Assembly (NCBI GenBank): GCA_050692555.1
Contig: JBOGVS010000002.1
Location: 50,651 to 114,650 of the forward strand
Length of the DNA stretch: 64,000 nt
DNA from: Actinomycetota bacterium
Lineage (GTDB): Bacteria > Actinomycetota > UBA4738 > CALAEC01
Direction of reading: 5' to 3'
Made by a program: the position numbers and the translations under genes. The stretch's first letter is position 1. Each line of letters starts with the position of its first letter. A model generated the notes under the pieces. It was not told the origin of the DNA, did no database searches, and saw only the letters and a program-made list of their open reading frames with translations. Shown here in pieces: positions 6,238 to 64,000 of the stretch.

Positions 6238-6502
6238 CTCGTTCCTCTCCCTCCGAGCCGCACCTGCGGCTCCTTGGGTTCCGCCCCGGGGATCCACGGA
6301 ACCCCGTCCTACCCCCGAGGCACAGCGGGTGCCCCTTCGGGTGCGGCCTTCGCGCCCCCGGAGCGCCCTGCGCGACGATTATAACTCCGGGGTCCGACGG
6401 TCCCCCCGGAAGCCTTCTCTCGGCTCTCCGTGTAACCGCCGCGCCTCCACCCGTATTTCGGTCGGCACGGGGGCTCGGATGAGGTTTTCTAGGGGTTTTT
6501 CC

Positions 6503-37551: not shown

Positions 37552-38694
37552 CTAGGACCCTGCCGTCACCGGCACCAGTGACAGAAGAGCGTCCTCCAGG
37601 ATCAGCCGGGCGTTGAGGTTGGTCTCGTCGGCCAGCGCGGCGCGGGCTTCCTCCAGGTCGGCGATGGCCTTGGCGGCCTCCGGCGCCGGAACGTCGGGCA
37701 GGCTCGCCACGCGGTCCAGGTTGATGGCCCACGACTCCGTTCCCCCCGCCCGCACCAGCAGGGCGTCTCGGAACCACGCTTGGAGAGCCAGCAACGCGGC
37801 GTCGAGGAACTCCCGCTCGGCTCGCCGCTCCTGGCGATGGTGCCGGGCCTGGAGCCGCCGGACCGCCGCGCGGTACTGGTCGACGGGGCGACCGGTCTCC
37901 GGATCCAGGAACGGCTCGAGATCGCCTTCGAGCCGCTTCGCCAGACGGTCCCGGTATCCCGCCGCCCCCTCGGTGAGCCCCTCCACCGCGCGGAGGGCGC
38001 CGGCCTCTCCGGCGGCCACCTCGGTCAGCGCGTGGAGGGCCGCGTCCCGGAACGCCAGACCTTCGGGGTCCGTGGCCACCCGTCGGGCCCGGCCCAGGTT
38101 CCCACCGGCCAGCCGAGCTGCGAGCCGGGCCCGGGGCTCCTCCACGCCCTCGCCCAGCAGGGTCTCCACGACGAACGCCTCGGACAGAGGCCGGAACGTC
38201 ACCGTGTGGCACCGCGACACGATGGTCTCCGGGATCTCGTGCGGCCGCGCCGACGAGAGAAGGAACACCGTGTCGGCGGGCGGTTCCTCAAGGGCCTTCA
38301 GCAGGACGTCGGCGGCCTCCTCGGTCATCCGATCGGCCTGCTCGACGCGGAAGATCTTCCGGCGGGGCTCGGGCGCGGTGAGGTAAGCCCGGGCCACCAG
38401 CCACCTCGCGGTGCCGTCCTCGTCGGGGCCCTCTCCCACCCGGATGTCCCGCCCCTCCGGCTCCACCAGCACCAGGTTGGGATGGCGGTCGCCGAGGGCC
38501 AGGCGGCAGTCCCGGCATTCCCCGCACCCCTCTCGTTCGCACACCAGCGCCGCGGTGAATGCACGAGCGGCGAGCTGCTTCCCCGAGCCCTCCGGACCGG
38601 CGAACAGGTACGCGTGATGGGGCCGCGCCGCCGCCCGCTCGAGGAACGCCACGGCATCCGGCTGGCCGGGGACCCCACGCAGGACCGCGCTCAC
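37552..38694 (-). CDS. holB: DNA polymerase III subunit delta' (HolB)
   Basis: HAYLFAGPEGSGKQLAARAF...CGECRDCRLALGDRHPNL...VLLKALEEPPADTVFLL is clamp-loader AAA+. The GTG start overlaps the tmk stop as GTGA. Confidence 0.8.
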   Translation of the reverse strand: MSAVLRGVPGQPDAVAFLERAAARPHHAYLFAGPEGSGKQLAARAFTAALVCEREGCGECRDCRLALGDRHPNLVLVEPEGRDIRVGEGPDEDGTARWLVARAYLTAPEPRRKIFRVEQADRMTEEAADVLLKALEEPPADTVFLLSSARPHEIPETIVSRCHTVTFRPLSEAFVVETLLGEGVEEPRARLAARLAGGNLGRARRVATDPEGLAFRDAALHALTEVAAGEAGALRAVEGLTEGAAGYRDRLAKRLEGDLEPFLDPETGRPVDQYRAAVRRLQARHHRQERRAEREFLDAALLALQAWFRDALLVRAGGTESWAINLDRVASLPDVPAPEAAKAIADLEEARAALADETNLNARLILEDALLSLVPVTAGS

Positions 38695-40712
38695 TCCTTC
38701 TTCTCCTCCGCTTCCTTCTCTTCCGTCTTCAGGAACTTCTCCAGGGCCTCCCGGACCCGTTGGTGCACCACGTACTCGGTGGCGTCCGCATCCACGACCA
38801 CGAACCGTTCCGGATGATCCTCGGCGATCCGAAGGAACGCATCCGCGACCTTGGCATGGAATCGCTCGTCCTCCCCCTCGATTCGATCCGGCTGGTCCCC
38901 CGCGCGGGCCAGGCCCTTGTCCGGCTCCACGTGGAGGAGGATCACCAGGTCGGGGAACAGCCCCTGGGTGGCCCACACGTTCAGCGAGAGGACGTCCTGC
39001 TCCCCGAGGCCCCGTCCCGCGCCCTGGTACGCCAGGGAGGAGTCCAGGTACCGGTCGCACAGCACGACCTTTCCCTCCTCCAGCGCCGGACGGATCACCC
39101 GGGAGACGTGCTGAGCCCGGCTGGCCGCAAACAGCAGGGCCTCGGCCCGAACGTCGATGGCCTCGTTGCTCCCTCGCAGCAGCGAGTCGCGGAGGCGCTC
39201 GCCCAGGGCGGTCCCCCCCGGCTCCCGGGTCACCAGGACGTCGTGCCCCTCCGACTCCAGCCAGTCCTTGGCCAGGTCGATCTGGGTGCCCTTCCCGGCC
39301 CCCTCAACACCTTCGAAGGCGATGAACGTCCCCCGCCGCTCGATCTTCCGGAGCCTGGGGAACAGCCGGAGGGCTCGGGGACGGGCGAGCCTGCTCTTCG
39401 ACAGGCCGATCCGGGAGAAGATGCCGCCGGCCAGCATGATGCCGGCGCCGACCCATATCGCCCCGCGAGGCCCGTCGTCGCCCGGCGTGAAGCCGAGGTC
39501 GGGGAAGGCCTGCGCCAGGACCGGGAAGCCGGCCAGGGACAGGAACAGGCCCAGACGAGCCAGCACCGTGAGCGTGCCGAACACCCTGCCCCGAAGCTCA
39601 TCGCTGACGTTCTCGTGCAGCAGCGTGTACCCGGTGACCCACGTGGAACCCGCCGCGGCTCCCATGATCACGGTGACGATAGCCGCCAGCAGAACGTTGG
39701 GCATGACCGCCAGCACGATGAGCGCGAATCCCCCGCCGAGGATCGCCAGCGGGAAGTAGATGTCCTTGTCCACCACCTTGTGGACCTGGCCGACGAGGGC
39801 CATGCCCGCGACCATCCCCAAACCCACCGCAGACACCAGGAACCCCCACGCCGTGGCAGTGCCTCCCAGGGTGAACTGGGCGAAGATCGGGCCAACCGAC
39901 ATCACCGCCCCGGCCCCCGTGAACGCCAGCACGATCCCCACCGTCATGGCCCGGGCGAACTGGTGCTCTCGAAGGAACCGGACACCCTCGCGCATGTCCG
40001 AGAAGGCCTCACCGAACTCGAGCTTTCCATCTCTCTTCTTGACTCCCCGGCCGATCCGCTCGGAAGCGAGGCCACGGATCATGTACGCCGAGAACGCGAA
40101 CGTGAGCGCGTCGGCCCACAGGGCGACGGACTCGGGGTTCTGATCGAAATAGGCGACCTGGGCGCCCAGCGCTCCGGCCAGTCCGGCCAGCGCCGTGTAC
40201 ACCAGGCCCGCCAGCGGCAGGGTCCCGTACCCGGTGCCCAGGGTGATGGTGTTCGCGTTGGCCAGCTGCCGGCGGGGAACCAGGTTGGGGATGATGGCGT
40301 CGCGGGCCGGGCTCCACAGCAGCGACAGGCACTCGATCAGGAACGAGATCGAGAAGATCCACGGCAGGTGGGGAATCAACGGGAGCGAGGCGTAGCCAAC
40401 GCCCCGGACCACGTCGGCCACGACCATGAGGCGCTTGCGATCGAACCGATCGACCAGTACCCCGGCGAACGGACCGAACACCAGCGAGGGGAGGAGCCGG
40501 GCCAGCATGATGCCGGAGACCGCGAAACCGGCGCTGCCGCCGCCGATCCGAGTGACCAGGGCCACCACGGCGACGAACCCCACCCAGTCCCCCAGCGAGG
40601 ACACCAAGATGGCCCGATACAGACGGGAGAACGAAGGATCCCGGAGAAGGGTGCGGAAGGTAGCGGGGCGGGTCCCCCGCAGGGCGGCGATCTCTTCGGT
40701 GACCGTCGCCAT
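38691..40712 (-). CDS. tmk: Fusion protein: N-terminal MFS-type 12-TM transporter domain (about 450 aa) plus C-terminal thymidylate kinase
   Basis: MFS-like membrane domain through residue about 455, then FIAFEGVEGAGKGTQ (P-loop), DRY motif and lid (LAYQGAGRGL) of dTMP kinase, in a single ORF of 673 aa. Confidence 0.85.
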   Translation of the reverse strand: MATVTEEIAALRGTRPATFRTLLRDPSFSRLYRAILVSSLGDWVGFVAVVALVTRIGGGSAGFAVSGIMLARLLPSLVFGPFAGVLVDRFDRKRLMVVADVVRGVGYASLPLIPHLPWIFSISFLIECLSLLWSPARDAIIPNLVPRRQLANANTITLGTGYGTLPLAGLVYTALAGLAGALGAQVAYFDQNPESVALWADALTFAFSAYMIRGLASERIGRGVKKRDGKLEFGEAFSDMREGVRFLREHQFARAMTVGIVLAFTGAGAVMSVGPIFAQFTLGGTATAWGFLVSAVGLGMVAGMALVGQVHKVVDKDIYFPLAILGGGFALIVLAVMPNVLLAAIVTVIMGAAAGSTWVTGYTLLHENVSDELRGRVFGTLTVLARLGLFLSLAGFPVLAQAFPDLGFTPGDDGPRGAIWVGAGIMLAGGIFSRIGLSKSRLARPRALRLFPRLRKIERRGTFIAFEGVEGAGKGTQIDLAKDWLESEGHDVLVTREPGGTALGERLRDSLLRGSNEAIDVRAEALLFAASRAQHVSRVIRPALEEGKVVLCDRYLDSSLAYQGAGRGLGEQDVLSLNVWATQGLFPDLVILLHVEPDKGLARAGDQPDRIEGEDERFHAKVADAFLRIAEDHPERFVVVDADATEYVVHQRVREALEKFLKTEEKEAEEKKE

Positions 40713-51141: not shown

Positions 51142-53445
51142 CTACCTCTTCAGCTGGAACGGCACGCTCGACAGGACCACCCGCGGCTCGAACAGCAGCA
51201 TCCGCTTGATGAACAGCGCCCGGTTGTTGTGCAGCAGTCGGTGCCACCACCGGGTGACCAGGAACTCCGGGACGATCACTGCGGCAATCGTCCCCGGGTC
51301 GGCCGTCTCCTTCCGGACCTCCTCCAGCAGGGGGACGGTGAGGTCCCGGAACGGTGTCTCCACCACATCGAGCTGCATCCGGATGCCTCGCTCTGCCCAC
51401 TGCCGGAGGATCTCCGGTGCCTCCTCCGGCTCGGTGGCCAGGAAGACCGCCCGGGTCTTATGCGCATTGAGGCTGCGGGCGTAGTTGACCGCCCGAACCG
51501 TGGCATCGTGAGCTGCGGCCACAAAGACCAGGGCCACCACCCGCTCGGGGACCAGTGGACGCCCGACGGCATCCTCCGGCTGGTCCCTGCGGGCCAGCAC
51601 GGGAACGTCGGTGACGACCACTCCCGGCTCCTTCAGCAGGCGGAGCTTAAGGCGGAACGTTACCGGACGCGTGATGGCCCGTACCAGGGACCGCGTGGTG
51701 AACAGCTCCGGGATGACCACGGTCACGAAGTCCTTCCCGCCCCGAGGGATACGGCGCACGTGGTCGATCACCCCGTCGACCGGATCGGGGCTCCCCACGG
51801 ACATCAGGCGAGGGGCGCCCGGCGCCATCCTGTTCCACAGACCTTCGGCTTCGGTCGGGAGACGCTTCCCAACGTAGAGCGCATCGATGGAGGCGGGACG
51901 GAACGACCGCACGTATCCCACGGCCTCGGCCGCGGCGGCATCGATGTCCGTCATCACCAGCACCACGCGGGTCTCGCCGACATCCCCGAACGCGGTCCGG
52001 CCCCGTCCGAGCTCCTTCACCACCTCCTCGTAGTGCCGGTGGACCAACGAGAAGAGACCGACCAGGATGGGCATCGCCGCGATAACGATCCACGCTCCGC
52101 CGGCGAACTTCGTGACGGCCACGATCACCAAGACCACGCCCGTGGCGACGGCACCGATCGAGTTGATGACGGCGGCACGCTTCCAGCCCGACTCCCGAAG
52201 ACGGAGCCAGCGCCGCACCATACCCGTCTGGGACAGGGTGAATGCGGTGAACACCCCCACCACGTACAGCTGGATGAGCCGCGTCAGGTCGGCGTCGAAT
52301 GCCCACACCAGAAGGCCGGCCAGCGCGGCCAGCACGAAGATCCCGTTGGAGAACACCAGCCGGTCTCCCCGATTCTTGAATTGACTGGGCATGAAGCGGT
52401 CGCGGGCGAGGATCGCCGAGAGGCGAGGGAAGTCCTGGTACGCCGTGTTCGCCGCCAGGATCAGGATGAGCGCGGTGAAGACCTGGAGCACGTAGAACAT
52501 CGTGCCGCCTGAGAACACGGTCTCCCCGATCTGAGCAAGGACCGACTTCGCCCCCTCGAGGTGCTGACTAACCCGCACGTCCAGTGACCGCGCCAGGAAC
52601 GTGATCCCCAGGAACATGCTGATCGACATGGTCCCCATGACCGCAAGCGTCGTTGCCGCGTTGCGCGACTGGGGGCGGCGGAACGCCTGAACCCCATCGG
52701 CGATGGCCTCCACGCCGGTGAGCGCCGTCGAGCCGGAGGCGAACGCCTTCAGGACGACGAACAACGATAGGGCCTGCCCGGCTTCGAGAGGCAGAGTCGC
52801 GGAGGTCGCCTGACGGCACCCGCCGATGCACTGCACCAGGCCGGTGACCAAGGTGACGGCCACACAGGCCACGAACCCATACGTGGGGATGGCGAAGAGC
52901 GTCCCGGCTTCCTTCACGCCTCGCAGGTTGGCCAGCGAGATGATCGCGATAAGGATCAGGGCGATCGGTACGCGCGCGCCTGCCAACCCCGGCACGGCGG
53001 AGACGATGGCGATCGTTCCCGCCGTCACGCTGACGGCGACGGTAAGGACGTAGTCCTGCAGGATCGCCGCCGCAGCGATCAGACCAGGGACTGTCCCCAG
53101 GTTCTCCCGGGCCACGATGTAGGAACCGCCACCCGCCGGATAGGCCCGCACGGTCTGCCGATAGGAGGTGATGACCACGGCGAGCACCGCGGCGATCACC
53201 GCTGCGATCGGCAGCATCAGGCTGAAGGCGGCCGCTCCCGCCGCCGCCAGCACCAGCATCATCTCCTCGGTGGCGTATGCCACTGAGGAGAGGGGGTCCG
53301 ACGAGAAGACCGGGAGGGCCAGGGTCTTGGGCAGGAGGTGGTGCTCGTGCTTCGCGGTGGAGATGGCCCGGCCCAGTACCACGCGCTTCAAAAGGCCCCG
53401 CCCCCCCGGTTCCGTCCCCCGGGAGGGACGAACGGTCGTCCCCAT
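51142..53445 (-). CDS. APC-superfamily permease fused to two C-terminal USP-like (adenine-nucleotide alpha-hydrolase-like) domains; paralog 1
   Basis: N-terminal 12-TM permease (LLPKTLALPVFSSDPLSSVAYATEE...), then two tandem alpha/beta domains of about 130 aa (RVVLVMTDIDAAAAEAVGYVRS...; RVVALVFVAAAHDATVRAVNYARSL...AAVIVPEFL) with USP-like topology but no ATP-binding Gly motif. The start was chosen at MGTTV by alignment to the paralog. Confidence 0.8.
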   Translation of the reverse strand: MGTTVRPSRGTEPGGRGLLKRVVLGRAISTAKHEHHLLPKTLALPVFSSDPLSSVAYATEEMMLVLAAAGAAAFSLMLPIAAVIAAVLAVVITSYRQTVRAYPAGGGSYIVARENLGTVPGLIAAAAILQDYVLTVAVSVTAGTIAIVSAVPGLAGARVPIALILIAIISLANLRGVKEAGTLFAIPTYGFVACVAVTLVTGLVQCIGGCRQATSATLPLEAGQALSLFVVLKAFASGSTALTGVEAIADGVQAFRRPQSRNAATTLAVMGTMSISMFLGITFLARSLDVRVSQHLEGAKSVLAQIGETVFSGGTMFYVLQVFTALILILAANTAYQDFPRLSAILARDRFMPSQFKNRGDRLVFSNGIFVLAALAGLLVWAFDADLTRLIQLYVVGVFTAFTLSQTGMVRRWLRLRESGWKRAAVINSIGAVATGVVLVIVAVTKFAGGAWIVIAAMPILVGLFSLVHRHYEEVVKELGRGRTAFGDVGETRVVLVMTDIDAAAAEAVGYVRSFRPASIDALYVGKRLPTEAEGLWNRMAPGAPRLMSVGSPDPVDGVIDHVRRIPRGGKDFVTVVIPELFTTRSLVRAITRPVTFRLKLRLLKEPGVVVTDVPVLARRDQPEDAVGRPLVPERVVALVFVAAAHDATVRAVNYARSLNAHKTRAVFLATEPEEAPEILRQWAERGIRMQLDVVETPFRDLTVPLLEEVRKETADPGTIAAVIVPEFLVTRWWHRLLHNNRALFIKRMLLFEPRVVLSSVPFQLKR

Positions 53446-53642
53446 CAGCGGGTCTCGATCCCGCCGTTCCGGGCGCGCGAAGGATCCTCGGCCGGGCTCC
53501 GGGAGCCCGCCATCAGCCGCAGGATGTCCTCGTGGAGCCGGGCCTCCCGGCTGGCGTGCGCGTACTCGCGCCAGGCGATCCAAGACCGGATCACCGGCCC
53601 GACCAGCAGGCCGATCACGAAGCCACTCACCAGCTCAGCCAC
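53445..53642 (-). CDS. 65-aa single-TM micro-ORF translationally coupled to the permease-USP gene
   Basis: GTG start preceded by GGGAGGAGG at an 8-nt spacing. Product VAELVSGFVIGLLVGPVIRSWIAWREYAHASREARLHEDILRL... is a TM helix plus a charged tail. Its stop overlaps the permease ATG (TGATG). Confidence 0.35.
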   Translation of the reverse strand: MAELVSGFVIGLLVGPVIRSWIAWREYAHASREARLHEDILRLMAGSRSPAEDPSRARNGGIETR

Positions 53643-53791: not shown

Positions 53792-55213
53792 GTGCGCGCG
53801 CTTCAGCCGTCCCGATGGCCCCCGCCGTTCCGCGTGGCCATGCCGGCCCTCCTGTTCCCGGGCATCGCCACCGCGCTTGCCGCCCTTCCCTTTACCGTCT
53901 CCACGACCACAGCATCGATGGCCTTCGTCTTGGCGGTCACCGGGGCCGCCGTGGTCGGGGGTTCGGCTGCGGGGTTCGGAGCATCCCTCGTCTCGTTCCT
54001 GGCGCTCAACTTCTTCTTCACGCCTCCGCGGTTCACCTTGAGCGCCGGCAAAGGCGAGGACGTGGTCGCTCTGGTCGTGTTCCTGTTGGTCTCGGCGGTG
54101 GTGGGTTCGCTGTTGTCCCGCGCCATCGCCCAGCGCGTGCGGGCCGAGCGACGGGAGCGAGAAGCCCGGCTCCTTCAATACCTGGGGACGAGACTGTTGT
54201 CGGGAGAACCGCCCGAGGAGATCCTTCAGAGCTTCGGCCAGGCGCTCACCGAGCTGGTCGGCGTGAAGCGGTACGAGGTCTTCCTGGAACCCGGGAACCG
54301 TCTCGCCGTTGAGGCGGGCATCGCCGAACCGGGCCTTCATCTGGAGGAATTCCCAATCCTGTCAGGGAGCGATCGGGTCGGGTCGATCCGCATCCATGCC
54401 GGAGGCGAGCCGTCGGGGCTGGAGGAAGACCGCCGACGCCTGATCCGGGCGTTCGCGGCGCAGCTGGCCCTGGCCCTGGAGAGCGCCCGTCTGGCCCAGG
54501 TGGCCCGGGACGCCCGGGTGAGCGCGGAGCGCAGTCAGCTCCAGGCCGCCCTCCTTCAGTCGGTGACCCACGACCTCCGCACCCCTCTGGCCTCCATCAC
54601 GGCCTCCGTCACCAGCCTCCTCGACGCGAGCATGGAGCTCCGCCGGGAGGACCAGGGTGATCTCCTTGAAACGATCCGCCAGGAGGCCGAACGGCTGGAC
54701 AGATTGGTCGGAAATCTCCTCGACCTGTCCCAGCTGCGGGCCGGCGCCTTGACGCCGTCCAAGCGACCGGCGGCGATCGACGAGGTGGTGGAGGGAGTTC
54801 TAGCTCGCATGGAACCCACGTTGCGCCGGCACCGTCTCAACGTGATCCTCCGAGAGGGTCTGCCCGAGGTACCTTTCGACGTGGTCCAGATCGATCAGGC
54901 CCTGACGAACATCCTGGAGAACGCGGCGAAGTACAGCCCGCCGGGATCCCAGATCACCGTCTCCGCCGCTCGCTGGGACAACACCGTGCAGGTACGGATC
55001 GCCGACCAGGGTCCGGGGATTCCGGGTGACGCGCGTGAACGGGTATTCGAGCCGTTCTTCCGGGCGCCCGGAGGTGCGGCGGAGGGTACGGGGCTGGGGC
55101 TGGCGATCGCCCACGCCGTGGTGACAGCGCACGGGGGCACAATCTGGATCGAGCAAGCACCCGGCGGTGGCACCGCGGTGACCTTCCGGCTCCCATTGAG
55201 CAACCCTGCCTGA
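53792..55213 (+). CDS. KdpD-like sensor histidine kinase lacking the N-terminal KdpD and USP domains (DUF4118 membrane domain, GAF-like region, HisKA, HATPase_c)
   Basis: DUF4118-type TM block with LNFFFTPPRFTLS, H-box VTHDLRTPLASI, and ATPase motifs NILENAAKYSPPGS...GTGLGLAIAHAVV. The start (GTG at 53792 or ATG at 53840) is uncertain. Confidence 0.85.
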   Translation: MRALQPSRWPPPFRVAMPALLFPGIATALAALPFTVSTTTASMAFVLAVTGAAVVGGSAAGFGASLVSFLALNFFFTPPRFTLSAGKGEDVVALVVFLLVSAVVGSLLSRAIAQRVRAERREREARLLQYLGTRLLSGEPPEEILQSFGQALTELVGVKRYEVFLEPGNRLAVEAGIAEPGLHLEEFPILSGSDRVGSIRIHAGGEPSGLEEDRRRLIRAFAAQLALALESARLAQVARDARVSAERSQLQAALLQSVTHDLRTPLASITASVTSLLDASMELRREDQGDLLETIRQEAERLDRLVGNLLDLSQLRAGALTPSKRPAAIDEVVEGVLARMEPTLRRHRLNVILREGLPEVPFDVVQIDQALTNILENAAKYSPPGSQITVSAARWDNTVQVRIADQGPGIPGDARERVFEPFFRAPGGAAEGTGLGLAIAHAVVTAHGGTIWIEQAPGGGTAVTFRLPLSNPA

Positions 55214-55914
55214 TGGTAATCAGGGTGCTGGTCGTGGACGACGATCCGCAGATCCTCCGAGCCGTGCGCACGAGTCTCCAGGCGAGGGGGTACGACGTCC
55301 TGACCGCGGGAAACGGCGAGACGGCTCTCGATCTCATGAGCTCAGAGAACGTCGACATGATGGTCCTGGATCTCAGCCTGCCGGGCATCGACGGGCACGA
55401 GGTGATCCGAAGGATGCGGACCTTCTCGGAGGTGCCGGTGCTGGTCCTTTCGGTACGCGAGTCCCAGGACGACAAGATCCTGGCGCTGGACGCGGGGGCC
55501 GACGACTACGTCACCAAGCCCTTTGGCATCGGCGAGCTACTGGCCCGGATGCGCGCTCTGGAACGCCGCGCTCATCCCAACGCCGCTTCGCCACCGATCC
55601 TTCGGTTCGGTGAGCTGGAAGTCGACCTCCGCCGGCAGCTCGTGCGCCGGGGGAGCGAGCCGATCCGGCTCACCCCCACCGAATACCGCCTGCTGGAAGC
55701 CATGGTCACCAACCCCGGGAAGCTGCTCACCCATCGGTGGCTCTTGAGCAGGGTGTGGGGGCCTGGATACGCGACCGAGACCCACTACGTGCGGATCTAC
55801 GTCCGACAGCTCCGACAGAAACTGGGCGATGATCCGGCCCGCCCCCGGTACGTCGTCACGGAGTCCGGACTGGGCTACCGGTGGCTCCCTGAGCCCGAGG
55901 AGCGGGCCCCCTGA
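55213..55914 (+). CDS. KdpE-like OmpR-family response regulator
   Basis: Receiver domain plus winged helix. The C-terminal LTHRWLLSRVWGPGYATETHYVRIYVRQLRQKLGDDPARPRYVVTESGLGYRW closely matches E. coli KdpE. 1-nt overlap with the HK gene. Confidence 0.9.
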   Translation: MVIRVLVVDDDPQILRAVRTSLQARGYDVLTAGNGETALDLMSSENVDMMVLDLSLPGIDGHEVIRRMRTFSEVPVLVLSVRESQDDKILALDAGADDYVTKPFGIGELLARMRALERRAHPNAASPPILRFGELEVDLRRQLVRRGSEPIRLTPTEYRLLEAMVTNPGKLLTHRWLLSRVWGPGYATETHYVRIYVRQLRQKLGDDPARPRYVVTESGLGYRWLPEPEERAP

Positions 55915-55997: not shown

Positions 55998-56543
55998 TCA
56001 CAGCTCGATCTCAGAAGCCACCGACTGGAGACCCTCGATCCCCAGGGCGATGAACTCGTCGAGGGGTACTCCGAGACTGTCCTCGACATCGGTGATCTCC
56101 TGGCGGTTGACACCGGGAGCGAAGGCCTTCTCCTTCAGCTTCTTCTTCACCGACGAGACCTTCATTCCGTCCGCCTTTTGCGGCCGGACCAACGCCGCGG
56201 CGACCAGCAGTCCGGCGACCGCATCGGCGTGCACCACGGCCTTGGACATCCGATCCGTCCGATAGGACTCGTGGGCATGGGCCAGGACCCCGTTCACCAC
56301 CTTCTCGTCGACGCCTGCTTCCCGCAGCCATTCGGCCGCCTGGTAGGCGTGCCGGTCCGGGTTGTCGTGCGTCTGGTCCTGGTCGAGATCGTGGAACAGC
56401 CCGACGAGCGCCCATGTGTCCTCGTCCTCGCCGAAATGCTGGGCCAGCCGCCGCATCACTCCCTCCACGCTGATCAGGTGGCGGACGGTGGTCTCCTTCT
56501 CCCCTTTCTCCCGTACCAGCTTCAGCGCTTCACCTCGATCCAT
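55998..56543 (-). CDS. HD-domain phosphohydrolase
   Basis: HD motif (VGLFHDLD...HAYQAAEWL...VLAHAHE). Co-oriented with permease paralog 2 and overlapping it by 14 nt. Confidence 0.7.
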   Translation of the reverse strand: MDRGEALKLVREKGEKETTVRHLISVEGVMRRLAQHFGEDEDTWALVGLFHDLDQDQTHDNPDRHAYQAAEWLREAGVDEKVVNGVLAHAHESYRTDRMSKAVVHADAVAGLLVAAALVRPQKADGMKVSSVKKKLKEKAFAPGVNRQEITDVEDSLGVPLDEFIALGIEGLQSVASEIEL

Positions 56544-58815
56544 TCGACCTCCTGATCTTGTAGGGCACGCTCGAGAGCACCACCCGCGATTCGAACAACA
56601 GCATGCGCTTGATGAACAGAGCCCGGTTGTTGTGGAGCAGCCGATGCCACCACCGGGTCACGAGGAACTCGGGCAGGATCACCGCGGCCAGGGTGGACGG
56701 GTCGGTCGTGACTCGCCGGACCTCTTCGAGAAGCGGCGGCCCCAGGTCGCGGAACGGAGCCTCGACCACGTCGAGGCGGATGCCGATGCCTCGCTCTGCC
56801 CACCGCTGCAGGATCTCGGGGGCTTCCTCCGGTTCGGTGGCCAGGAAGACGGCTCTGGTCTCGTGGGCGTTCAGGCTCCGGGCGTAGTTGACGGCCCGCA
56901 CGGTGGCATCGTTGACGGAGGAGACGAACACCAGAGCTTCCACTCGCGGAGGGATCAGCGCCCGGCCGTCCACCCCCACGAGCTCCCCTTCTTGTGCCAG
57001 CACCGGCACGTCGGTCACGACCACCTGTGGCTCGGCCAGGAGCCTAACCTTCAGGCGGAACGTGACCGGCTTTACCAGAGCCCGCACAAGCGACCTCGTC
57101 GGGAAGAACTCAGGGATCACAACGGTCACGAAGTCCCCCGGGTCACGAGGGACCCGGCGAACATGCTCGATGACCGCCTCCACTCGCGATCTCCCCTCCG
57201 CCGGCTCCAGCGGCGGAAGCCCGCGACTCATCTCGGCCCAGAGCGCCTGGGCGTCCCCGATCGGCCGGTCCCCGGCGTAGACGGGGTGGACCTCGGCCGG
57301 CCGGAGCGAGCGGACGTATCCGAGGGCCTCGGCGGTGGCGGGATCGAAGTCGGTCAGCACCAGCACGACCCGGTTGAGCCCCGGATCACGGTAGTTGACG
57401 TCGTGGCGATCCAGCGCAGCGGAGACCGCCGTGTAATGCCGATTCACCTGGAGCAGGGCGGTGATCATGATCGGCAGGGCCGCGACGACCATCCAGGCTC
57501 CTTCGGCAAACCGGGTCACCACCACCACGGCGAGGACCACTCCGGTCGTGGTCGCCCCGATCCCGTTTATCATCGCGTTCCGTCGCCAGCCCGCTTCCTT
57601 GGTGCTGGCCCACCTCCGCACCATCCCGGATTGAGAAAGGGTGAACGCGGTGAACACGCCGACCAGGTAGAGCGGGATCAGGCGCGTGAGCCTTCCATCA
57701 AATGCCCACACCAGCGCTCCGGCCAGGACCGACAGCACCAGGATCCCGTTCGAGAACACCAGCCGGTCTCCGCGGTTCTTGAACTGCCCGGGCATGAAGC
57801 GATCTCGCGCCAGGATCGCCGACAGCCGGGGGAAGTCCTGGTACGCGGTGTTGGCGGCCACGATCAGGATCATGGCCGTGAACGCCTGCAGCCCGATAAA
57901 GAGCGCACCGCGACCGAAGATCGTTGCCCCGATCTGAGACAAAACCGACCGCGAGGCCACGATCTCCTCCGTGACCCGGACGTCCAGCGTCCTGGCCAGG
58001 AACGTGATCCCCAGGAACATGGAGATCGACATCACGGCCATCACCGAGAGCGTCGCCGCGGCATTCTTGCCTTGCGGCCTCCGGAAGGCCTGGACGCCGT
58101 CGGCGATGGCCTCAACCCCCGTCAGGGCGGATGATCCCTGAGTGAAGGCCTGCAACACGAGGAAGATCGTGATCGACTGCGTGGCCTCCAGAGGCAGCCC
58201 GGCGGTGGCTGCTTCCGGGCATCCGCCGACGCATCTGACGAGCCCGGTTATCACGGTCAAGCCCACCACCGCGACGAAGCCGTAGGTGGGGACGGCGAAC
58301 AACATGCCCGACTCCCGCACCCCCCGGAGGTTGACCAGCGCAATGAGGGCGATGAACCCCAACGCCAGGTTCACGCGATGCGGCGCGAGCTCGGGGACGG
58401 CTGACGTGATCGCGATTGCTCCGGCGGTCACACTGACCGCGGCGGTGACGACGTAGCCGATCAGGATGGCGGAGGCGGCCAGGAGGCCCGGGAAGGTGCC
58501 GAGGTTCTCGCGGGCCACGATGTATGAGCCACCTCCGCGAGGATATGCCCGGACGGTCTGGCGATAGGAAGTCACGACGATCAGGAGGACGGCCGCGATG
58601 GCCAGCCCGATGGGCACCATGAGAGCCAGGGCTGCCGCGCCGGCCAGCACCAGGATCAACATCATCTCCTCGGTGGCGTAGGCCACGGAAGACAGGGGAT
58701 CTGAGGAGAACACCGGCAGGGCTAACGTCTTGGGGAGGAGGTGATGTTCTGTCTTGGCGGTGGAGATCGCCCGGCCCAGAATGACCCGCTTCAGGGTGTC
58801 GCCGACGGTGGCCAC
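56530..58815 (-). CDS. APC-superfamily permease fused to two C-terminal USP-like domains; paralog 2 (Rv2690c-like position next to trkA)
   Basis: Full-length paralog of 51142..53445; the 3' ends share about 85% nucleotide identity. Divergently adjacent to the trkA pair, as M. tuberculosis Rv2690c is to ceoB/ceoC. Confidence 0.8.
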   Translation of the reverse strand: MATVGDTLKRVILGRAISTAKTEHHLLPKTLALPVFSSDPLSSVAYATEEMMLILVLAGAAALALMVPIGLAIAAVLLIVVTSYRQTVRAYPRGGGSYIVARENLGTFPGLLAASAILIGYVVTAAVSVTAGAIAITSAVPELAPHRVNLALGFIALIALVNLRGVRESGMLFAVPTYGFVAVVGLTVITGLVRCVGGCPEAATAGLPLEATQSITIFLVLQAFTQGSSALTGVEAIADGVQAFRRPQGKNAAATLSVMAVMSISMFLGITFLARTLDVRVTEEIVASRSVLSQIGATIFGRGALFIGLQAFTAMILIVAANTAYQDFPRLSAILARDRFMPGQFKNRGDRLVFSNGILVLSVLAGALVWAFDGRLTRLIPLYLVGVFTAFTLSQSGMVRRWASTKEAGWRRNAMINGIGATTTGVVLAVVVVTRFAEGAWMVVAALPIMITALLQVNRHYTAVSAALDRHDVNYRDPGLNRVVLVLTDFDPATAEALGYVRSLRPAEVHPVYAGDRPIGDAQALWAEMSRGLPPLEPAEGRSRVEAVIEHVRRVPRDPGDFVTVVIPEFFPTRSLVRALVKPVTFRLKVRLLAEPQVVVTDVPVLAQEGELVGVDGRALIPPRVEALVFVSSVNDATVRAVNYARSLNAHETRAVFLATEPEEAPEILQRWAERGIGIRLDVVEAPFRDLGPPLLEEVRRVTTDPSTLAAVILPEFLVTRWWHRLLHNNRALFIKRMLLFESRVVLSSVPYKIRRSNGSR

Positions 58816-58867
58816 CGGGAGATTCTAAGCGGGGCGGGTTCCAAACCCCCCTCACCCGCGCTAGCCT

Positions 58868-59533
58868 GTGAGATCGATGCATCTGGTGATCATGGGTTGC
58901 GGGCGGGTGGGGGCCGAACTGACCGTGCAGCTTTCCAAGGCCGGACACACCGTCTGCATCGTCGACAAGCGGAAGGAGGCCTTCGAGCGTCTCCCGCCGG
59001 GGTTCAACGCCAAGACCATCGTGGGCATCGGGTTCGACCGCGAGGTCCTGGAGGAGGCCGGGATCAAGGAGGCCGACGCGTTCATCGCCGTGTCCAACGG
59101 GGACAACTCCAACATCGTCTCGGCCCGGGTGGCCCGGGAGCACTACCGGGTCCCCAAGGTCATCGCCCGGATCTACGACCCCCGGCGAGCGGAGATCTAC
59201 GAGCGGCTGGACATCCCCACGGTGGCCACGGTCCGGTGGGCGGCCAAGCAGGTCCAGTACCTCCTGTTCCACGGCAAGGAGACCATGCGGGACACCCTGG
59301 CTGGCGGCTCCCTCCTCCACCTGGCGGTTGGGATCCCCGATCACCTGGTTGGCAAGCAGGCCGACAGCGTGCACTCAGAGGGGGAGGTGGAGGTCGTCGG
59401 GGTCGAGCGGGGCGGCGAGGGGTTCATCCCCACCCCCGACTCCACCTTCAAGGAAGGCGACGTGGCCCACTTCATCGTGCACAAAGACCACGTGGACAAG
59501 TTCGACATGCTGCTCGAACCGGTGGCCGAATGA
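58868..59533 (+). CDS. trkA: TrkA-family K+ transport regulatory protein (RCK N + C domains)
   Basis: HLVIMGCGRVGAEL Rossmann fold with a TrkA_C domain; CeoB-like. Confidence 0.85.
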   Translation: MRSMHLVIMGCGRVGAELTVQLSKAGHTVCIVDKRKEAFERLPPGFNAKTIVGIGFDREVLEEAGIKEADAFIAVSNGDNSNIVSARVAREHYRVPKVIARIYDPRRAEIYERLDIPTVATVRWAAKQVQYLLFHGKETMRDTLAGGSLLHLAVGIPDHLVGKQADSVHSEGEVEVVGVERGGEGFIPTPDSTFKEGDVAHFIVHKDHVDKFDMLLEPVAE

Positions 59534-59543
59534 AGATCGTCGC

Positions 59544-59596
59544 AAAACCCCACGTCTCTCGCTCGCTTCGCTCGCTGCGAGCCGCGGGGGCCCCAC
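59544..59596 (+). repeat. About 55-nt conserved intergenic element, copy B. Sequence: AAAACCCCACGTCTCTCGCTCGCTTCGCTCGCTGCGAGCCGCGGGGGCCCCACTCC
   Basis: About 90% identical to the reverse complement of 9964..10018. Followed by a GGTACAgggTGTACC inverted repeat. It lies between the trkA1 stop and the trkA2 start. Confidence 0.6.
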
Positions 59597-59639
59597 TCCC
59601 TGGTACAGGGTGTACCGACAGATCCCAGGGGGTGGGTCC

Positions 59640-60323
59640 TTGAGGATCGTGGTGGCCGGCGCGGGCAACATCGGCCGTTACATGGCCCACGACCTGGTGG
59701 AGCGAGGCCACGAGGTGTCGCTGATCGAGCAGGACCCCGCCATGGCCGAGCGGGCTAGCCACGACGTCGCCGAGGACGTCACTATGGTTTTGGGCGATGC
59801 CTGCGAGCCATGGGTCCTGGACAAGGCCGACGTCCGCTCCTCGGACGTGATGGTTGCCGCGACGGGCGACGACGAGGACAACCTGGTGATCTCCTTGCTC
59901 TCGAAACAGGAGTACGGCGTTCCCCGAGTGGTGGCCCGGGTCAACCACCCCAAGAACGAGTGGCTGTTCAACGAGACCTGGGGCGTCGACGTGGCCATGA
60001 GCCCACCGCACGTCCTCACCGCTCTGGTCGAGGAAGCCGTGACGGTGGGCGACCTGGTGCGGCTGTTCAAGCTGGAGCGAGGCCAGGTCACCCTGGTGGA
60101 GCTGACCATCGACGAGAACGCCCCGATGCAGGGCCGGCCCCTCTACGAGCTCCGGCTTCCTCCCGACTCCGCCATCGTGGCCATCCTCCGGGGCGGCCAC
60201 GTGGTCATCCCCCAACCCGAGACCCAGATCGTGGGCGGGGACGAGGTCATGGCCATCGCCACGCCGGAAGCCGAGGATAAGCTTCGCACCACGTTGCTCG
60301 GCCCGCCCTCGTCGAGCGGGTAG
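59640..60323 (+). CDS. trkA: TrkA-family K+ transport regulatory protein, second copy (CeoC-like)
   Basis: RIVVAGAGNIGRYMAHDLVERGHEV Rossmann fold with a TrkA_C domain. The start is probably TTG/GTG (59640 or 59648). Confidence 0.8.
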   Translation: MRIVVAGAGNIGRYMAHDLVERGHEVSLIEQDPAMAERASHDVAEDVTMVLGDACEPWVLDKADVRSSDVMVAATGDDEDNLVISLLSKQEYGVPRVVARVNHPKNEWLFNETWGVDVAMSPPHVLTALVEEAVTVGDLVRLFKLERGQVTLVELTIDENAPMQGRPLYELRLPPDSAIVAILRGGHVVIPQPETQIVGGDEVMAIATPEAEDKLRTTLLGPPSSSG

Positions 60324-60683
60324 CTACGACGCGAACTCGAACCGAGGATTGACCATCCGGTAGGAGGCGCTGTCCACGGCGATCACGCCCTCGAGGACCA
60401 CCGGGGTGCCCAGGGACAGACCGGGGATGTGGCTCCGCCCCAGCCACGCCGCGGTGACCTCGCCGGTACCGTCGGAGACCACGGCCTCCAGAGTCACCGA
60501 GCCGTTCATCGGCCGAAGGGTGAGCCTGCTCACTTGCCCGGCCACCCGGACCGGTTCCCGGCTGGGGCAGCCCTCGATCCGCCGCACGCCGGGGACGCTC
60601 TCGGCCCACGTCTTGATCTCCTCATCCAGCAGCTCCTCGTCGGACCGCCGGAAGCGATGGAGGAACCTGCTCAACCGGCCCAC
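60324..60683 (-). CDS. OB-fold nucleic-acid-binding domain protein, hypothetical
   Basis: 119-aa ORF. The C-terminal VRVAGQVSRLTLRPMNGSVTLEAVVSDGTGEVTAAWLGRSHIPGLSLGTPVVLEGV resembles tRNA_anti-like OB folds. Confidence 0.5.
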   Translation of the reverse strand: MGRLSRFLHRFRRSDEELLDEEIKTWAESVPGVRRIEGCPSREPVRVAGQVSRLTLRPMNGSVTLEAVVSDGTGEVTAAWLGRSHIPGLSLGTPVVLEGVIAVDSASYRMVNPRFEFAS

Positions 60684-60692
60684 ACCACTAGG

Positions 60693-62954
60693 CTAACTCG
60701 CCTTGGTGGTCACCGCCGCGGCTTCGGGGCTGGGCGGCCCGCTCTCCGGGACCAGCTCGGCGGTCTTGAGCCGTTTCGAGTACCAGATGGCCCCGGTCAC
60801 CACGGCCAGGGCACCCACGGCCACCACCGCCCGCACCACGCCGTCGTCGGCGAAGGAGACCACCAACGGAGCGGCCAGCAGAGCCACCAGGTTCATCACC
60901 TTGATCAGCGGGTTGAGCGCAGGCCCCGCGGTGTCCTTGAACGGGTCCCCCACCGTGTCCCCGATCACCGTGGCCTTGTGAGGCTCGGACCCCTTGCCTC
61001 CGTAGAGGCCCTCCTCGATGAGCTTCTTGGCGTTGTCCCACGCCCCACCGGCGTTCGAGAGCATCACCGCCAGCAGCTGGCCGGTGAGGATGGCACCGGC
61101 CAGGTACGCCCCCAGGGCCTCGGCCTCCAGGGCGAAGCCAACGAAGATGGGGGCCAAGACGGCCAGCAGCCCGGGCGTGAGGAGCTCGCGCAACGAGGTC
61201 CGGGTACAGATGTCCACCACCCGGCCGTAGTCCGGGGTCTCGGTCCCGTCCATGATCCCCGGGTGGTCGCGGAACTGGTTGCGAACCTCCACCACCACCT
61301 GGGCCGCGGCCCGGCCCACCGCCCGGATGGCCAGTGCGGAGAACATGAACGCGATCGACCCCCCGATCAGCAGACCGACCAGCACGTCGGGGTGGTTGAT
61401 CCGGATGTCCAGACCGCCGCCCACCGCCTGCTCGAACGATCCGAACAGTGAGGTGGCGGCGATCACCGCGGTGGCGATGGCCATCCCCTTGGTGATGGCC
61501 TTGGTGGAGTTCCCCACGGCGTCGAGACCGGCGAGGATCTCCGCGGGCTTCCCCTCGAACTCGCCGGACATCTCGGCGATCCCCTGGGCGTTGTCGGCGA
61601 CCGGACCGTAGGTGTCCATGGACACGATGACACCGACCGTTGTGAGCATCCCCATCCCGGTCAGCGAGATGAAGTACAGACGCTCGGCGGTGTTGTCCCC
61701 CAGGAGGAACGCTCCGGTCATCGTCGCCGCGATCAGCAGGATGGCGTACACGGTGGACTCCAGGCCCACCGAGAAGCCCGAGAGGATCGTGGTCGCCGCG
61801 CCGGTCTGCGAGGACGAGGCGATCTCCTGGACCGGCTTGCGCTTGGTGGACGTGAAGTGCTCGGTGATGACCTGGATCAGGGCGGCCAGGACCAGGCCCA
61901 TCACCACGGCCCAGAACACCCTGATGTCGTCGACGTACAGCGTGGCCACCACATACACCGCGGCCGCCGACAGGATGGCCGAGAGGAAGAAGCCCCGGTT
62001 GATGGCCCTCATCCCGTGCTCGGTCTCCGACCGGGGGCGCACGGCGTAGATCCCGATGATCGAGGTGATGACCCCGATGGCCCGGACGAACAGCGGGAAC
62101 ATCACGCCGACGATGGCGCCCTCCGGCGACCCTGCGAACGCCGCGGCTCCCAGGATGATCGAGGCCACCAGGGTGACCTCGTAGGACTCGAACAGGTCGG
62201 CGGCCATCCCCGCGCAGTCGCCCACGTTGTCCCCGACGTTGTCTGCGATCACCGCCGCGTTGCGGGGGTCGTCCTCCGGGATGTTCTTCTCCACTTTCCC
62301 CACCAGGTCCGCGCCCACGTCGGCGGCCTTGGTGAAGATCCCTCCGCCGACCCGCATGAACATGGCCAGGAGGGCTCCCCCGAACCCGAACCCCACCAGC
62401 ACGGAGGTGGCGTCCTCCTTGTAGATGAGGAGGATGGCCGCGGCTCCCAGGAGCCCCAGGCCCACGGTGAACATCCCGGCGACCCCACCGGTCCGGAACG
62501 CTATGGTCAGGGCTCGCCGGAGCCCCGCCTCACGGGCGGCGTTGGCCACCCGCACGTTGCCCCGCACCGCCAGCCACATCCCGGCGAAGCCGGTGACGGC
62601 CGAGAACCCCGCCCCCAGGACGAAGGCGAGGGACCGCCCGAACCGGATCGAGAAGTCGCCGGCCCGCACCGGGTCGACCGGGAGGACGAAGAACAGCGCC
62701 ACGGCCAGGATGCCCAGGAACAGCCCGACGGTCCGGAACTGGCGGTTCAGATACGCGCGACTCCCAACCTGGATGGCCTCGGCGATCTGGCGCATCTTCG
62801 GGGTGCCCTCGGGCGCCGCCAGGACCCAGCGACGGAGCACGTAGGCCACCACCAGAGCCAGGAGGGAGATCCCCAGGATGACCATCAGGGCGTTGTCTTC
62901 GAACGATCCGAAGACGGCCTCGATGGAGCCGCCTTCCTGGCCCAGCACGTGCAT
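60693..62954 (-). CDS. hppA: Membrane-bound proton/sodium-translocating pyrophosphatase
   Basis: 16-TM V-PPase. Motifs [41 protein letters not shown] and [14 protein letters not shown]. Confidence 0.9.
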
Positions 62955-63004
62955 TCCGCCTTCCTCCTCGAAGGGGTGATTCGGGGTCGGCTGAGAGCCG
63001 ACGG

Positions 63005-63010
63005 ATTATA
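63005..63010 (-). promoter_or_regulatory. Perfect TATAAT -10 hexamer about 45 nt upstream of hppA
   Basis: Minus-sense sequence ...GGCTATAATCCGTCGGCTCTCAGCCGAC... lies between the antiporter stop and the hppA start. A consensus -10 box is unusual in roughly 70% GC DNA. No clear -35 is present. Confidence 0.35.
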
Positions 63011-63012
63011 GC

Positions 63013-64000
63013 CTAGCCCCTGTTGCCGGCCTCGCCTTCCTCGCCTCGTCGCACCAGAGGACCCAGGACCGGCGGGGTCGCCAGTGTGGTGACCACGGTC
63101 ATGACGATCACCACACCGAACAGGTCGGCGTCGAGGCCCAGACCCAGACCCAGTGAAGCCACGATCAGTCCCACCTCGCCGCGAGGCACCATTCCCACCC
63201 CCACGGTCAGCGCGGTCGCCCGGCCCAGTCCGGCCGAGCCCAGGTACCCTCCCGCCACCTTGGTGATCACCGCGAGGACCGTGACCGCGGCGGCCAGCCC
63301 CAGGATCGAGGGATCCCCGAACACGGTCGGGTCGAGGCGACTGCCGGTGATGGCGAAGAAGAAGGGGACCAGGAACTCGTACACGGGCTCGATCTGGGTG
63401 GCCACCTCCTCCTTGCGGAACTCGAATACCAGCCCGGCGAGAAACGCTCCGATGATCGCGGCCAGCCCGATGACCTCGGAGAGCGCGGCGAGGCCCAGGG
63501 TGAGGAGCACCGCGATCAGGAACGGTGATTCGGGGACCCCCGGGAGCCTGAGAACCCTGGACAGGCGCCGGGTGGCCCCCGGTCCCAGGAGGAGGACGAC
63601 CGCCAGGAACACGAGCACCTCGCCCACGAGGAACAGGAACGAGAAGGTGGAGAGGTCGCCAGCGGCCAGTCCGGCCACCACCGCCAGCACGATGATCGCC
63701 AGGATGTCGTCGACCACCGCCGCCCCGAGCACCACCCGGGCGGCCGTGGTCTGCACGGCGTTGAGGTCCCGCAACACCCGGGCGGTGACCCCAACGCTGG
63801 TGGCCACGATGGCAGCAGAGACGAACAAGGAGTCCACCCGGTCGTAGCCCAGCCCGAACATGAGGCCGATCCCCGCGGCGAACGGCAGCACGACCCCGAG
63901 GAACCCCGCCGACAGCGCCGCCCGCCCGACGCGCCGGAGGTCATCCAGCCGGGTCTCCAGCCCCACGGTGAACAGCAGGATGATGACGCCCAGCTCCGCC
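63013..64000 (-). CDS. Cation:proton antiporter (CPA1/CPA2, Na+/H+ or K+/H+ exchanger family); N-terminus lies outside the window
   Basis: C-terminal 317 aa show Na_H_Exchanger TM helices (LGAIIGAFLAGLVF...EPVYEFLVPFFFAITG). Confidence 0.8.
   Translation of the reverse strand, partial: AELGVIILLFTVGLETRLDDLRRVGRAALSAGFLGVVLPFAAGIGLMFGLGYDRVDSLFVSAAIVATSVGVTARVLRDLNAVQTTAARVVLGAAVVDDILAIIVLAVVAGLAAGDLSTFSFLFLVGEVLVFLAVVLLLGPGATRRLSRVLRLPGVPESPFLIAVLLTLGLAALSEVIGLAAIIGAFLAGLVFEFRKEEVATQIEPVYEFLVPFFFAITGSRLDPTVFGDPSILGLAAAVTVLAVITKVAGGYLGSAGLGRATALTVGVGMVPRGEVGLIVASLGLGLGLDADLFGVVIVMTVVTTLATPPVLGPLVRRGEEGEAGNRG

Follow-up and report, generated by a model that had tools for sequence, protein, structure and literature searches.

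The question raised by this locus is which membrane protein is served by two TrkA-type RCK proteins whose genes are not accompanied by a gene for a TrkH or KtrB pore. The locus lies near the right end of a stretch of 64,000 nucleotides from an Actinomycetota bacterium (GTDB lineage Bacteria; Actinomycetota; UBA4738; CALAEC01; GenBank assembly GCA_050692555.1, contig JBOGVS010000002.1, positions 50,651 to 114,650 of the forward strand), and this whole stretch is referred to as the window. Its G+C content is 69%, and genes were chosen by third-position G+C and then checked against Pfam and NCBIfam. A further 4.8 kb of the source contig beyond the window end were included, which gives 68.8 kb in total around the TrkA pair. 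An earlier note, made from the letters of this DNA alone, had described an ion-homeostasis island here, and every gene that it named was found at or near the position given. The most likely partner of the RCK ring is a KimA-type K+/H+ symporter, because such pairs nearly always have a KimA-type gene as a neighbour, whereas TrkH and KtrB genes are missing from the vicinity. This answer is tentative and has its basis in genomic context: the identities of the parts are secure, whereas the functional link between ring and symporter is one that we infer.

KimA-type symporters of the locus

Two paralogous membrane proteins are encoded next to the TrkA pair and its neighbours, and the earlier note had taken them for amino-acid permeases with a generic USP tail. 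Sequence comparison and structure prediction instead identify both as KimA-type K+/H+ symporters that belong to the KUP family, with a LeuT fold and a duplicated KimA C-terminal domain. Paralog 2 (56530..58815, minus strand, 761 residues) is encoded divergently from the TrkA pair. When it was compared with solved structures using phmmer, the best match was Bacillus subtilis KimA (6S3K, E = 3e-117), which covered both the membrane domain (residues 7-468) and the C-terminal domain (628-755), and the next matches were LAT amino-acid transporters at about 1e-3. The protein begins with a LeuT-fold domain of twelve helices (about 1-468), after which come two KimA-type cytoplasmic domains in tandem (about 481-608 and 624-753). 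The extra 160 residues, previously read as the USP tail, are thus a second copy of the cytoplasmic domain of KimA (an internal repeat with an hhalign probability of 96% and E = 2e-9). An AlphaFold 2 model of paralog 2 has a mean predicted local distance difference test score (pLDDT) of 72, with about 80-93 in both C-terminal domains. Foldseek places the KimA structures 8B70, 8B71 and 6S3K at the top (E-values from 3.5e-31 to 4e-27, and a TM-score of 0.83 when normalised to 6S3K), followed by cation-chloride cotransporters, whose C-terminal region was matched alongside the membrane domain. Paralog 1 (51142..53445, minus strand; AA_permease_2 in Pfam) lies 5 kb away and is 70% identical to paralog 2 over 749 residues; it has 767 residues from the deposited start at 53445, or 813 residues from an alternative TTG start at 53583.

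The functional residues point in the same direction. In B. subtilis KimA the K+ site is formed by D36, Y43, T121, S125, T230 and Y377, and E233 serves proton coupling (PMC6994465). In an alignment of this protein with 63 actinobacterial copies, all seven K+/H+ residues are invariant in 61 copies and the other two differ by T230S only; both window paralogs have the complete set. With such a K+/H+ symporter identity, transport of amino acids only is very unlikely. The regulatory residues are more variable. For the Bacillus protein, D117 has been proposed as a residue of trans-inhibition, and R337, H579, N580, Q581 and S582 form the pocket for cyclic di-AMP (c-di-AMP) (PMC6994465, PMC10284832). 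This pocket is incomplete in the window copies, which have Gly or Ser at position 337 and carry Q581N and S582R while H579 and N580 are retained; most copies from Acidimicrobiia retain the full pocket. D117 is kept in paralog 1 and replaced by Gly in paralog 2. The idea that its loss is a trait of TrkA-adjacent copies was rejected, as Gly occurs only in paralog 2 and in one related locus (L006), Ser or Ala in four copies and Asp in 57.

Compared with B. subtilis KimA (also YdaO; 6S3K, 8B70), the window copies thus share the fold, the domain order, the K+/H+ residues and the type of the C-terminal alpha/beta domain, with about 40% identity over the membrane domain in an alignment inspected by eye. 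They differ in the tandem cytoplasmic domain, in the altered c-di-AMP pocket and, in paralog 2, in the exchange of D117 for Gly. A further difference is that no ydaO-type riboswitch precedes them; in the whole window no riboswitch of this c-di-AMP type or any other was found, and Rfam yields a tRNA only. The window gene moreover has a KdpDE-like two-component system and the split TrkA genes as neighbours, neither of which is known to adjoin kimA in B. subtilis.

The family is large, with 2,229 clusters at 50% identity (E <= 1e-30), and it is poorly labelled. Pfam offers AA_permease_2 only, and NCBIfam has no model. Among the relatives listed, those with a name bear the label "amino acid transporter" or "APC family permease", the sole exception being a Frankiales entry named ydaO. 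The recognition of these proteins as KimA-type therefore sets right a mislabelling that is widespread in public annotation.

Two halves of a split TrkA

TrkA1 (58868/58877..59533, plus strand, deposited with the ATG at 58877 as start) and TrkA2 (59640..60323, plus strand) each contain an RCK_N and an RCK_C domain, the TrkA_N and TrkA_C of Pfam, and are 23% identical to each other. Their matches among solved structures distinguish them. Residues 3-107 of the full-length TrkA of Vibrio align with TrkA1 and residues 234-436 with TrkA2 (4J9U, 4G65), and the two-subunit TM1088A/B of Thermotoga (3L4B, chains A and C) is matched by both. These comparisons, together with NCBIfam for TrkA1, identify the two genes as the halves of a split TrkA, with TrkA1 as the CeoB-like equivalent of the N-terminal half and TrkA2 as the CeoC-like equivalent of the C-terminal half. 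The TM1088A/B pair assembles into a hetero-octameric RCK gating ring of four plus four subunits, and homologues were noted in Actinobacteria including Mycobacterium tuberculosis (PMC4380455). By analogy, a ring of four TrkA1 and four TrkA2 subunits would be expected here. Likenesses and differences accompany each of these templates. As in Thermotoga (TM1088A/TM1088B-TM1089), TrkA is split into two adjacent genes, but TM1088A lacks RCK_C, which both window proteins possess, and the Thermotoga pair adjoins a TrkH gene whereas the window pair adjoins a KimA-type symporter. With TrkA-TrkH of Vibrio parahaemolyticus (4J9U) and with KtrAB the window pair shares the RCK ring that is expected for it, the Rossmann GxGxxG motifs and RCK_C; in contrast to those systems no TrkH/KtrB-type pore lies nearby, and the proposed partner has a LeuT fold and is not K+-channel-like.

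TrkA2 starts with a TTG codon at 59640, as supported by homologues beginning with MRIVVAGAGN, and the deposited start at 59652 is probably four codons too short. The spacer between the two genes has 106 nt (59534-59639, plus strand), while in most relatives the genes overlap or are separated by less than 60 nt. It was considered as a structured element and discarded, as it folds no better than shuffled sequence (z = -0.64).

Between TrkA1 and the divergent KimA paralog 2 lie only 61 nt (58816..58876). In them TANNNT boxes are found 6-9 nt from the start codons of both genes, and this reading of the sequence suggests back-to-back promoters giving leaderless or nearly leaderless transcripts. Consensus sigma-70 promoters with both hexamers were not found in a scan of 55.8-64 kb.

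As the earlier note had stated for its surroundings, the TrkA pair stands without a pore gene: neither the 64-kb window nor the adjoining 4.8 kb past its end yielded a gene for TrkH, KtrB or a K+ channel. The other polytopic membrane proteins of the window, outside the island, are a fusion of MFS and thymidylate kinase domains and ABC permeases.

Gene neighbourhood of TrkA pairs in related genomes

Species-representative genomes were scanned with a TrkA2 alignment and the best 80 loci were taken, which according to their record titles belong to Actinomycetes, Acidimicrobiia, Mycobacteriales and Frankiaceae and have TrkA2 proteins of 52-82% identity; the window proteins were then mapped onto these loci (numbered with L) by tblastn. 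In all but one of the 80 (79), TrkA2 is immediately preceded by TrkA1. Linkage with KimA was assessed in the 64 loci whose upstream sequence extends over at least 2.5 kb. A KimA-type gene is found within 3 kb of the pair in 59 of these and is directly adjacent in 42, which makes it the most conserved neighbour. Three layouts recur. In the first, KimA and the pair are transcribed divergently; in the second, an operon of kinase, regulator and KimA diverges from the pair; in the third, KimA is co-directional with TrkA1-TrkA2. The last arrangement, with gaps of about 50-80 nt, accounts for five of the 42 adjacent cases (L007, L009, L013, L018, L031), and in L086, which was looked up separately, a small open reading frame (ORF), KimA, a CDF gene, TrkA1 and TrkA2 all point in the same direction. 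KimA is the only K+ transporter that stays adjacent through these rearrangements, across Actinomycetes and Acidimicrobiia. The order KimA-like, TrkA1, TrkA2 is also present in related genomes of Mycobacteriales and Frankiaceae, and one of these loci (L073) has in addition the gene for a small OB-fold protein.

This OB gene is the second most conserved neighbour, being found downstream in 52 of 75 loci. The gene for a membrane H+-translocating pyrophosphatase (H+-PPase) is present in 44 of 80, at a position relative to the pair that differs between the two classes, and a CPA2 antiporter gene in three of 80. Near the pairs, 37 polytopic ORFs of at least 300 residues were not matched by the window queries, and a Pfam census of these gave NhaA (nine), KdpA (five) and KdpB (four); no TrkH or K+ channel was among them. 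Sampling was also done from the side of KimA. An orphan paralog on a chromosome arm of Streptomyces gilvosporeus (L083) adjoins nothing related, L084 adjoins a KdpDE-like system only, and L085 and L086 adjoin both a KdpDE-like system and a TrkA pair.

The window region makes up the right half of a gene cluster for K+ homeostasis that is conserved in actinobacteria, and a K+-independent H+-PPase and the small OB-fold protein complete its conserved core. The description as a dense ion-homeostasis locus holds well, since related loci repeatedly combine genes for KimA, a KdpDE-like system, H+-PPase, NhaA, Kdp and CaCA. All of the protein families are known (KimA/KUP, split TrkA, membrane pyrophosphatase, CPA2, KdpE). 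KimA-like genes have been noted in Streptomyces (2023 review, PMC10117811), as have two-subunit TrkA proteins in Actinobacteria (2015, PMC4380455). In the literature searched we found no mention of a systematic linkage of KimA with split TrkA, or of KimA as a membrane partner of the CeoBC type.

The membrane partner of the RCK ring

The earlier note had pointed to the divergent permease as a possible partner of the TrkA proteins. That choice is the one most favoured by the gene neighbourhood, while its description as an amino-acid permease has to be given up. If the ring works with KimA, it would sense adenine nucleotides, NAD(H) or c-di-AMP and so tune the proton-driven uptake of K+; the KdpDE-like system would set the transcription of KimA, the H+-PPase would help to maintain the proton-motive force that drives the uptake, and the OB-fold protein would probably be a third component of the TrkA module. 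A more specific proposal has the split RCK ring, probably in concert with the OB-fold protein, bind and gate KimA directly, with a KimA of the Rv2690c type as the membrane component of the actinobacterial, including the mycobacterial, "Trk". We regard this direct form as less likely than not.

Most relevant for comparison is M. tuberculosis, in which CeoB and CeoC (Rv2691 and Rv2692) are likewise encoded by two adjacent TrkA-type genes. The neighbouring gene Rv2690c, with a consecutive locus tag, is probably KimA-like. A DUF3159 gene (Rv2693c) is said to lie between ceoC and Rv2694c, and the species is not known to have a membrane PPase. The literature on M. tuberculosis and M. smegmatis calls CeoB and CeoC "the Trk K+ transporter", yet both are soluble RCK proteins, and in the Trk literature searched for these two species no TrkH or other membrane subunit is named. 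Deletion of ceoBC causes only mild K+ phenotypes (PMC6375644), and a mutant lacking Kdp and CeoBC still imports K+, for which only channels have been proposed as alternative route (PMC13163235, 2026), so that another K+ importer must exist in this species. S. venezuelae has two KimA-like genes and reportedly neither TrkH nor KtrB (PMC10117811). An anecdotal observation is that variants of rv2690c (26%) and ceoC (25%) arose together in one serial clinical isolate (PMC11878324). The published observations on S. venezuelae and M. tuberculosis are compatible with KimA as the partner of the ring.

Several observations weigh against KimA as that partner, and most of them also speak for the best of the alternatives, namely that the ring gates a K+ pore encoded elsewhere, either a TrkH or KtrB protein or a two-helix channel bearing its own RCK domain like Rv3200c, and that the adjacency of KimA reflects shared regulation or inherited gene order. 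KimA of B. subtilis functions without an RCK protein and is directly regulated by c-di-AMP (PMC6994465, PMC10284832). Many actinobacterial copies keep the c-di-AMP pocket (R337 and H-N-Q-S/T), and these may need no additional regulator either. In a transposon co-essentiality analysis of M. tuberculosis, ceoB and ceoC were grouped with Rv2694c and with the RCK-bearing channel Rv3200c, and Rv2690c was not listed (bioRxiv 10.1101/2022.09.27.509804). When the 150 best representatives of the family were taken and the ten longest inspected, none proved to be a fusion of KimA with an RCK domain, and the cytoplasmic face of KimA is occupied by its own swapped domains, so that there is no obvious surface on which a ring could dock. 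In a rough mirror-tree analysis of 24 loci, in which paralogy and the presence of only two deep clades are confounding factors, the correlation of KimA with TrkA1 disappeared once PPase was controlled for (partial r 0.0, against 0.40 with TrkA2), so that no signal of co-evolution between TrkA1 and KimA was seen. The conserved gene order must in part reflect shared descent, as the 80 loci are closest relatives only. Finally, in a lineage of low G+C content (47-49%; L051, L052, L055, L082) the TrkA pair occurs without an adjacent KimA or a detectable OB gene.

On the other side, neither the 68.8 kb analysed here nor the unexplained large membrane ORFs flanking the 80 pairs contain a TrkH, a KtrB or a channel, and the same is reported for TrkH and KtrB in S. 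venezuelae. The adjacency of KimA persists through at least three rearrangements, including the operon-like co-directional forms. We consider a pore encoded elsewhere to be the main rival, somewhat less likely than KimA, and retain KimA as the tentative partner of the ring.

A less probable alternative is that TrkA1, TrkA2 and the OB-fold protein, joined in some lineages by a DUF3159 protein, form a module that targets something other than the K+ transporters of the cluster. It could, for instance, sense nucleotides or redox state and act on some other process or on a membrane protein not yet characterised. The OB gene (60324..60683, minus strand, 119 residues; weak Pfam match to tRNA_anti-codon) is convergent with TrkA2 and lies 9 nt downstream of the PPase gene, and the convergent arrangement is what recurs in the 52 of 75 loci mentioned above. 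The evolutionary distances of the OB protein follow those of TrkA1 and TrkA2 (partial r 0.60 and 0.40), compared with 0.55 between TrkA1 and TrkA2 themselves. The protein has a conserved loop, GRxxIPGLxLG, and a Thr-phosphorylated peptide of Rv2694c from M. tuberculosis reads RIPGIDTGR (PMC4322841). As this peptide fits the loop, Rv2694c, which is co-essential with ceoBC, is probably the OB orthologue, and the OB protein may belong to the CeoBC module without having been recognised as part of it. In the low-G+C lineage, a TRAM-domain methyltransferase lies upstream of the pair (L051, L052, L055, L082), and a DUF3159 membrane protein follows directly after TrkA2 in five of five loci (the same four and L069), with a dUTPase also downstream. 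Because DUF3159 takes this place where KimA is not adjacent, it is an alternative candidate partner in that lineage.

Such a module with a different target nevertheless appears improbable. The TrkA-type RCK proteins characterised to date are known as regulators of cation transport, and transporters for K+, H+ and Na+ dominate the neighbourhood. DUF3159 is found in only five of the 80 loci. The OB protein itself gives no functional lead, since its AlphaFold 2 model (mean pLDDT 88) shows a generic OB fold with only generic structural matches (PolC, RecG, SSB, Stn1). A 222-residue protein encoded past the window end was tried as a diverged DUF3159 and discarded, as it has no Pfam match and one hydrophobic segment only.

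Regulation of the nearby CPA2 antiporter by the TrkA pair, in the manner of KhtT/KhtU or CpeA/CpeB, is very improbable, because this antiporter, although it has no fused KTN/RCK domain and its gene is 2.7 kb away from TrkA2, occurs close to the pair in just three of 80 loci, is encoded on the opposite strand with the OB and PPase genes in between, and is followed by a PPase gene that has its own strong -10 box. KhtTU of Bacillus and CpeAB of Streptomyces are RCK_C proteins with the CPA2 antiporters that they regulate, and the window cluster likewise combines a CPA2 antiporter with soluble RCK proteins, but here the genes do not form one operon.

Should the ring indeed gate KimA directly, this would be the first RCK-regulated transporter of the KUP family, and RCK regulation, so far associated with CPA2 antiporters and channel-like pores, would extend to a LeuT-fold secondary transporter. 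The membrane component that has long been missing from the actinobacterial "Trk" would thereby be identified. The recognition of KimA also provides a candidate for the unexplained mycobacterial uptake of K+ and makes the target of CeoBC experimentally tractable. If the pairing with KimA is wrong, a well-conserved K+ gene cluster and the correction of the annotation remain.

The pyrophosphatase, its promoter and the antiporter

The gene of the membrane H+-translocating pyrophosphatase (60693..62954, minus strand) matches the Pfam profile H_PPase with E = 5.6e-252 over positions 1-644 of 645. In the translation, the A/K position is occupied by Lys, and the motif GNxTKAxTKG contains its Thr. According to the Ala/Lys (A/K) rule, the Lys form marks K+-independent, H+-pumping membrane pyrophosphatases. 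The earlier note had left the pumped ion as H+ or Na+; pumping of Na+ is unlikely given this K+-independent type of motif, and the protein is better described as a K+-independent H+-PPase.

A perfect TATAAT -10 box (63005..63010, minus strand) lies 50 nt upstream of the ATG of the PPase gene. The rarity claimed for it is borne out, as it is one of two in the 64 kb, with 0.19 expected by chance. It is followed by a 7-bp hairpin, which is marginal in comparison with shuffled sequence (z = -1.8), and then by the ribosome-binding site GAGGAGGAAGG. A TATAAT, TATACT or TATCCT box occurs at the equivalent position of the PPase gene in many relatives from the class Actinomycetes (L002, L005, L008, L010, L015 and L020-L037), and in these a short G+C-rich hairpin usually comes after the -10 box, together with a strong ribosome-binding site. 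The other perfect TATAAT of the window (6378-6383, minus strand) abuts the upstream end of an 872-codon stop-to-stop frame (3763-6378, minus strand).

The cation:proton antiporter of the earlier note (63013..>64000, minus strand; Pfam Na_H_Exchanger) is cut by the window end and has 388 residues on the source contig. It is present as noted and belongs to CPA2 according to NCBIfam, but with its rare occurrence near other pairs it is a lineage-specific neighbour and not a part of the conserved core. Past the window end follow genes for the 222-residue protein, which is membrane-anchored, a LytR_cpsA_psr protein, a Na_Ca_ex antiporter and a DEAD/HRQ1-type helicase.

The two-component system and minor genes

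Divergently from KimA paralog 1, a histidine kinase (53792..55213, plus strand; Pfam DUF4118, HisKA and HATPase) and an OmpR-family response regulator (55213..55914, plus strand) are encoded. The kinase resembles the C-terminal half of KdpD, with 6LGQ as best match among solved structures; it starts at DUF4118 and lacks the N-terminal and USP domains of KdpD. The regulator matches KdpE of E. coli (4KNY) with E = 2.9e-66, some 21 orders of magnitude ahead of the family that comes next (5e-45). This KdpDE-like system flanks the KimA genes and not kdpFABC, as there are no kdp genes in the window. In many relatives it forms the kinase-regulator-KimA operon, and in one database protein (P0370) a KimA-like protein is fused to DUF4118. 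These arrangements suggest that a Kdp-type sensor has been re-used for the control of a KimA importer.

An HDIG-domain phosphohydrolase of 181 residues (55998..56543, minus strand; Pfam HD, NCBIfam HDIG) is encoded between the regulator and KimA paralog 2. The start of its gene overlaps the end of the KimA gene by 14 nt, so that the two are probably co-transcribed. Among the related loci that carry it, the protein is 73-81% identical, which exceeds the conservation of KimA itself, and its gene is mostly found directly downstream of a KimA gene. No match to it was obtained among solved structures. We speculate that it may hydrolyse a nucleotide second messenger and so be linked to the regulation of KimA.

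A small ORF (53445..53642, minus strand), called on the source contig, encodes a protein of 65 residues with one N-terminal hydrophobic segment. It belongs to a family of 62-68 residues with this segment and an RSWxxWRE motif, further members of which are found at L002:15067-15273 and L086:5816-6004, and to which Pfam gives no match. The stop codon overlaps the start of the KimA gene adjoining the KdpDE-like system in the window and in L086, and in L002 the small ORF ends about 45 nt upstream of it.

Far from the island, the fusion protein mentioned above is encoded by a single ORF (38691-40712, minus strand; 673 residues), in which an MFS domain with nine predicted helices is joined to a C-terminal thymidylate kinase. 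The same fusion was also called in a relative, at L002:21459 onward.

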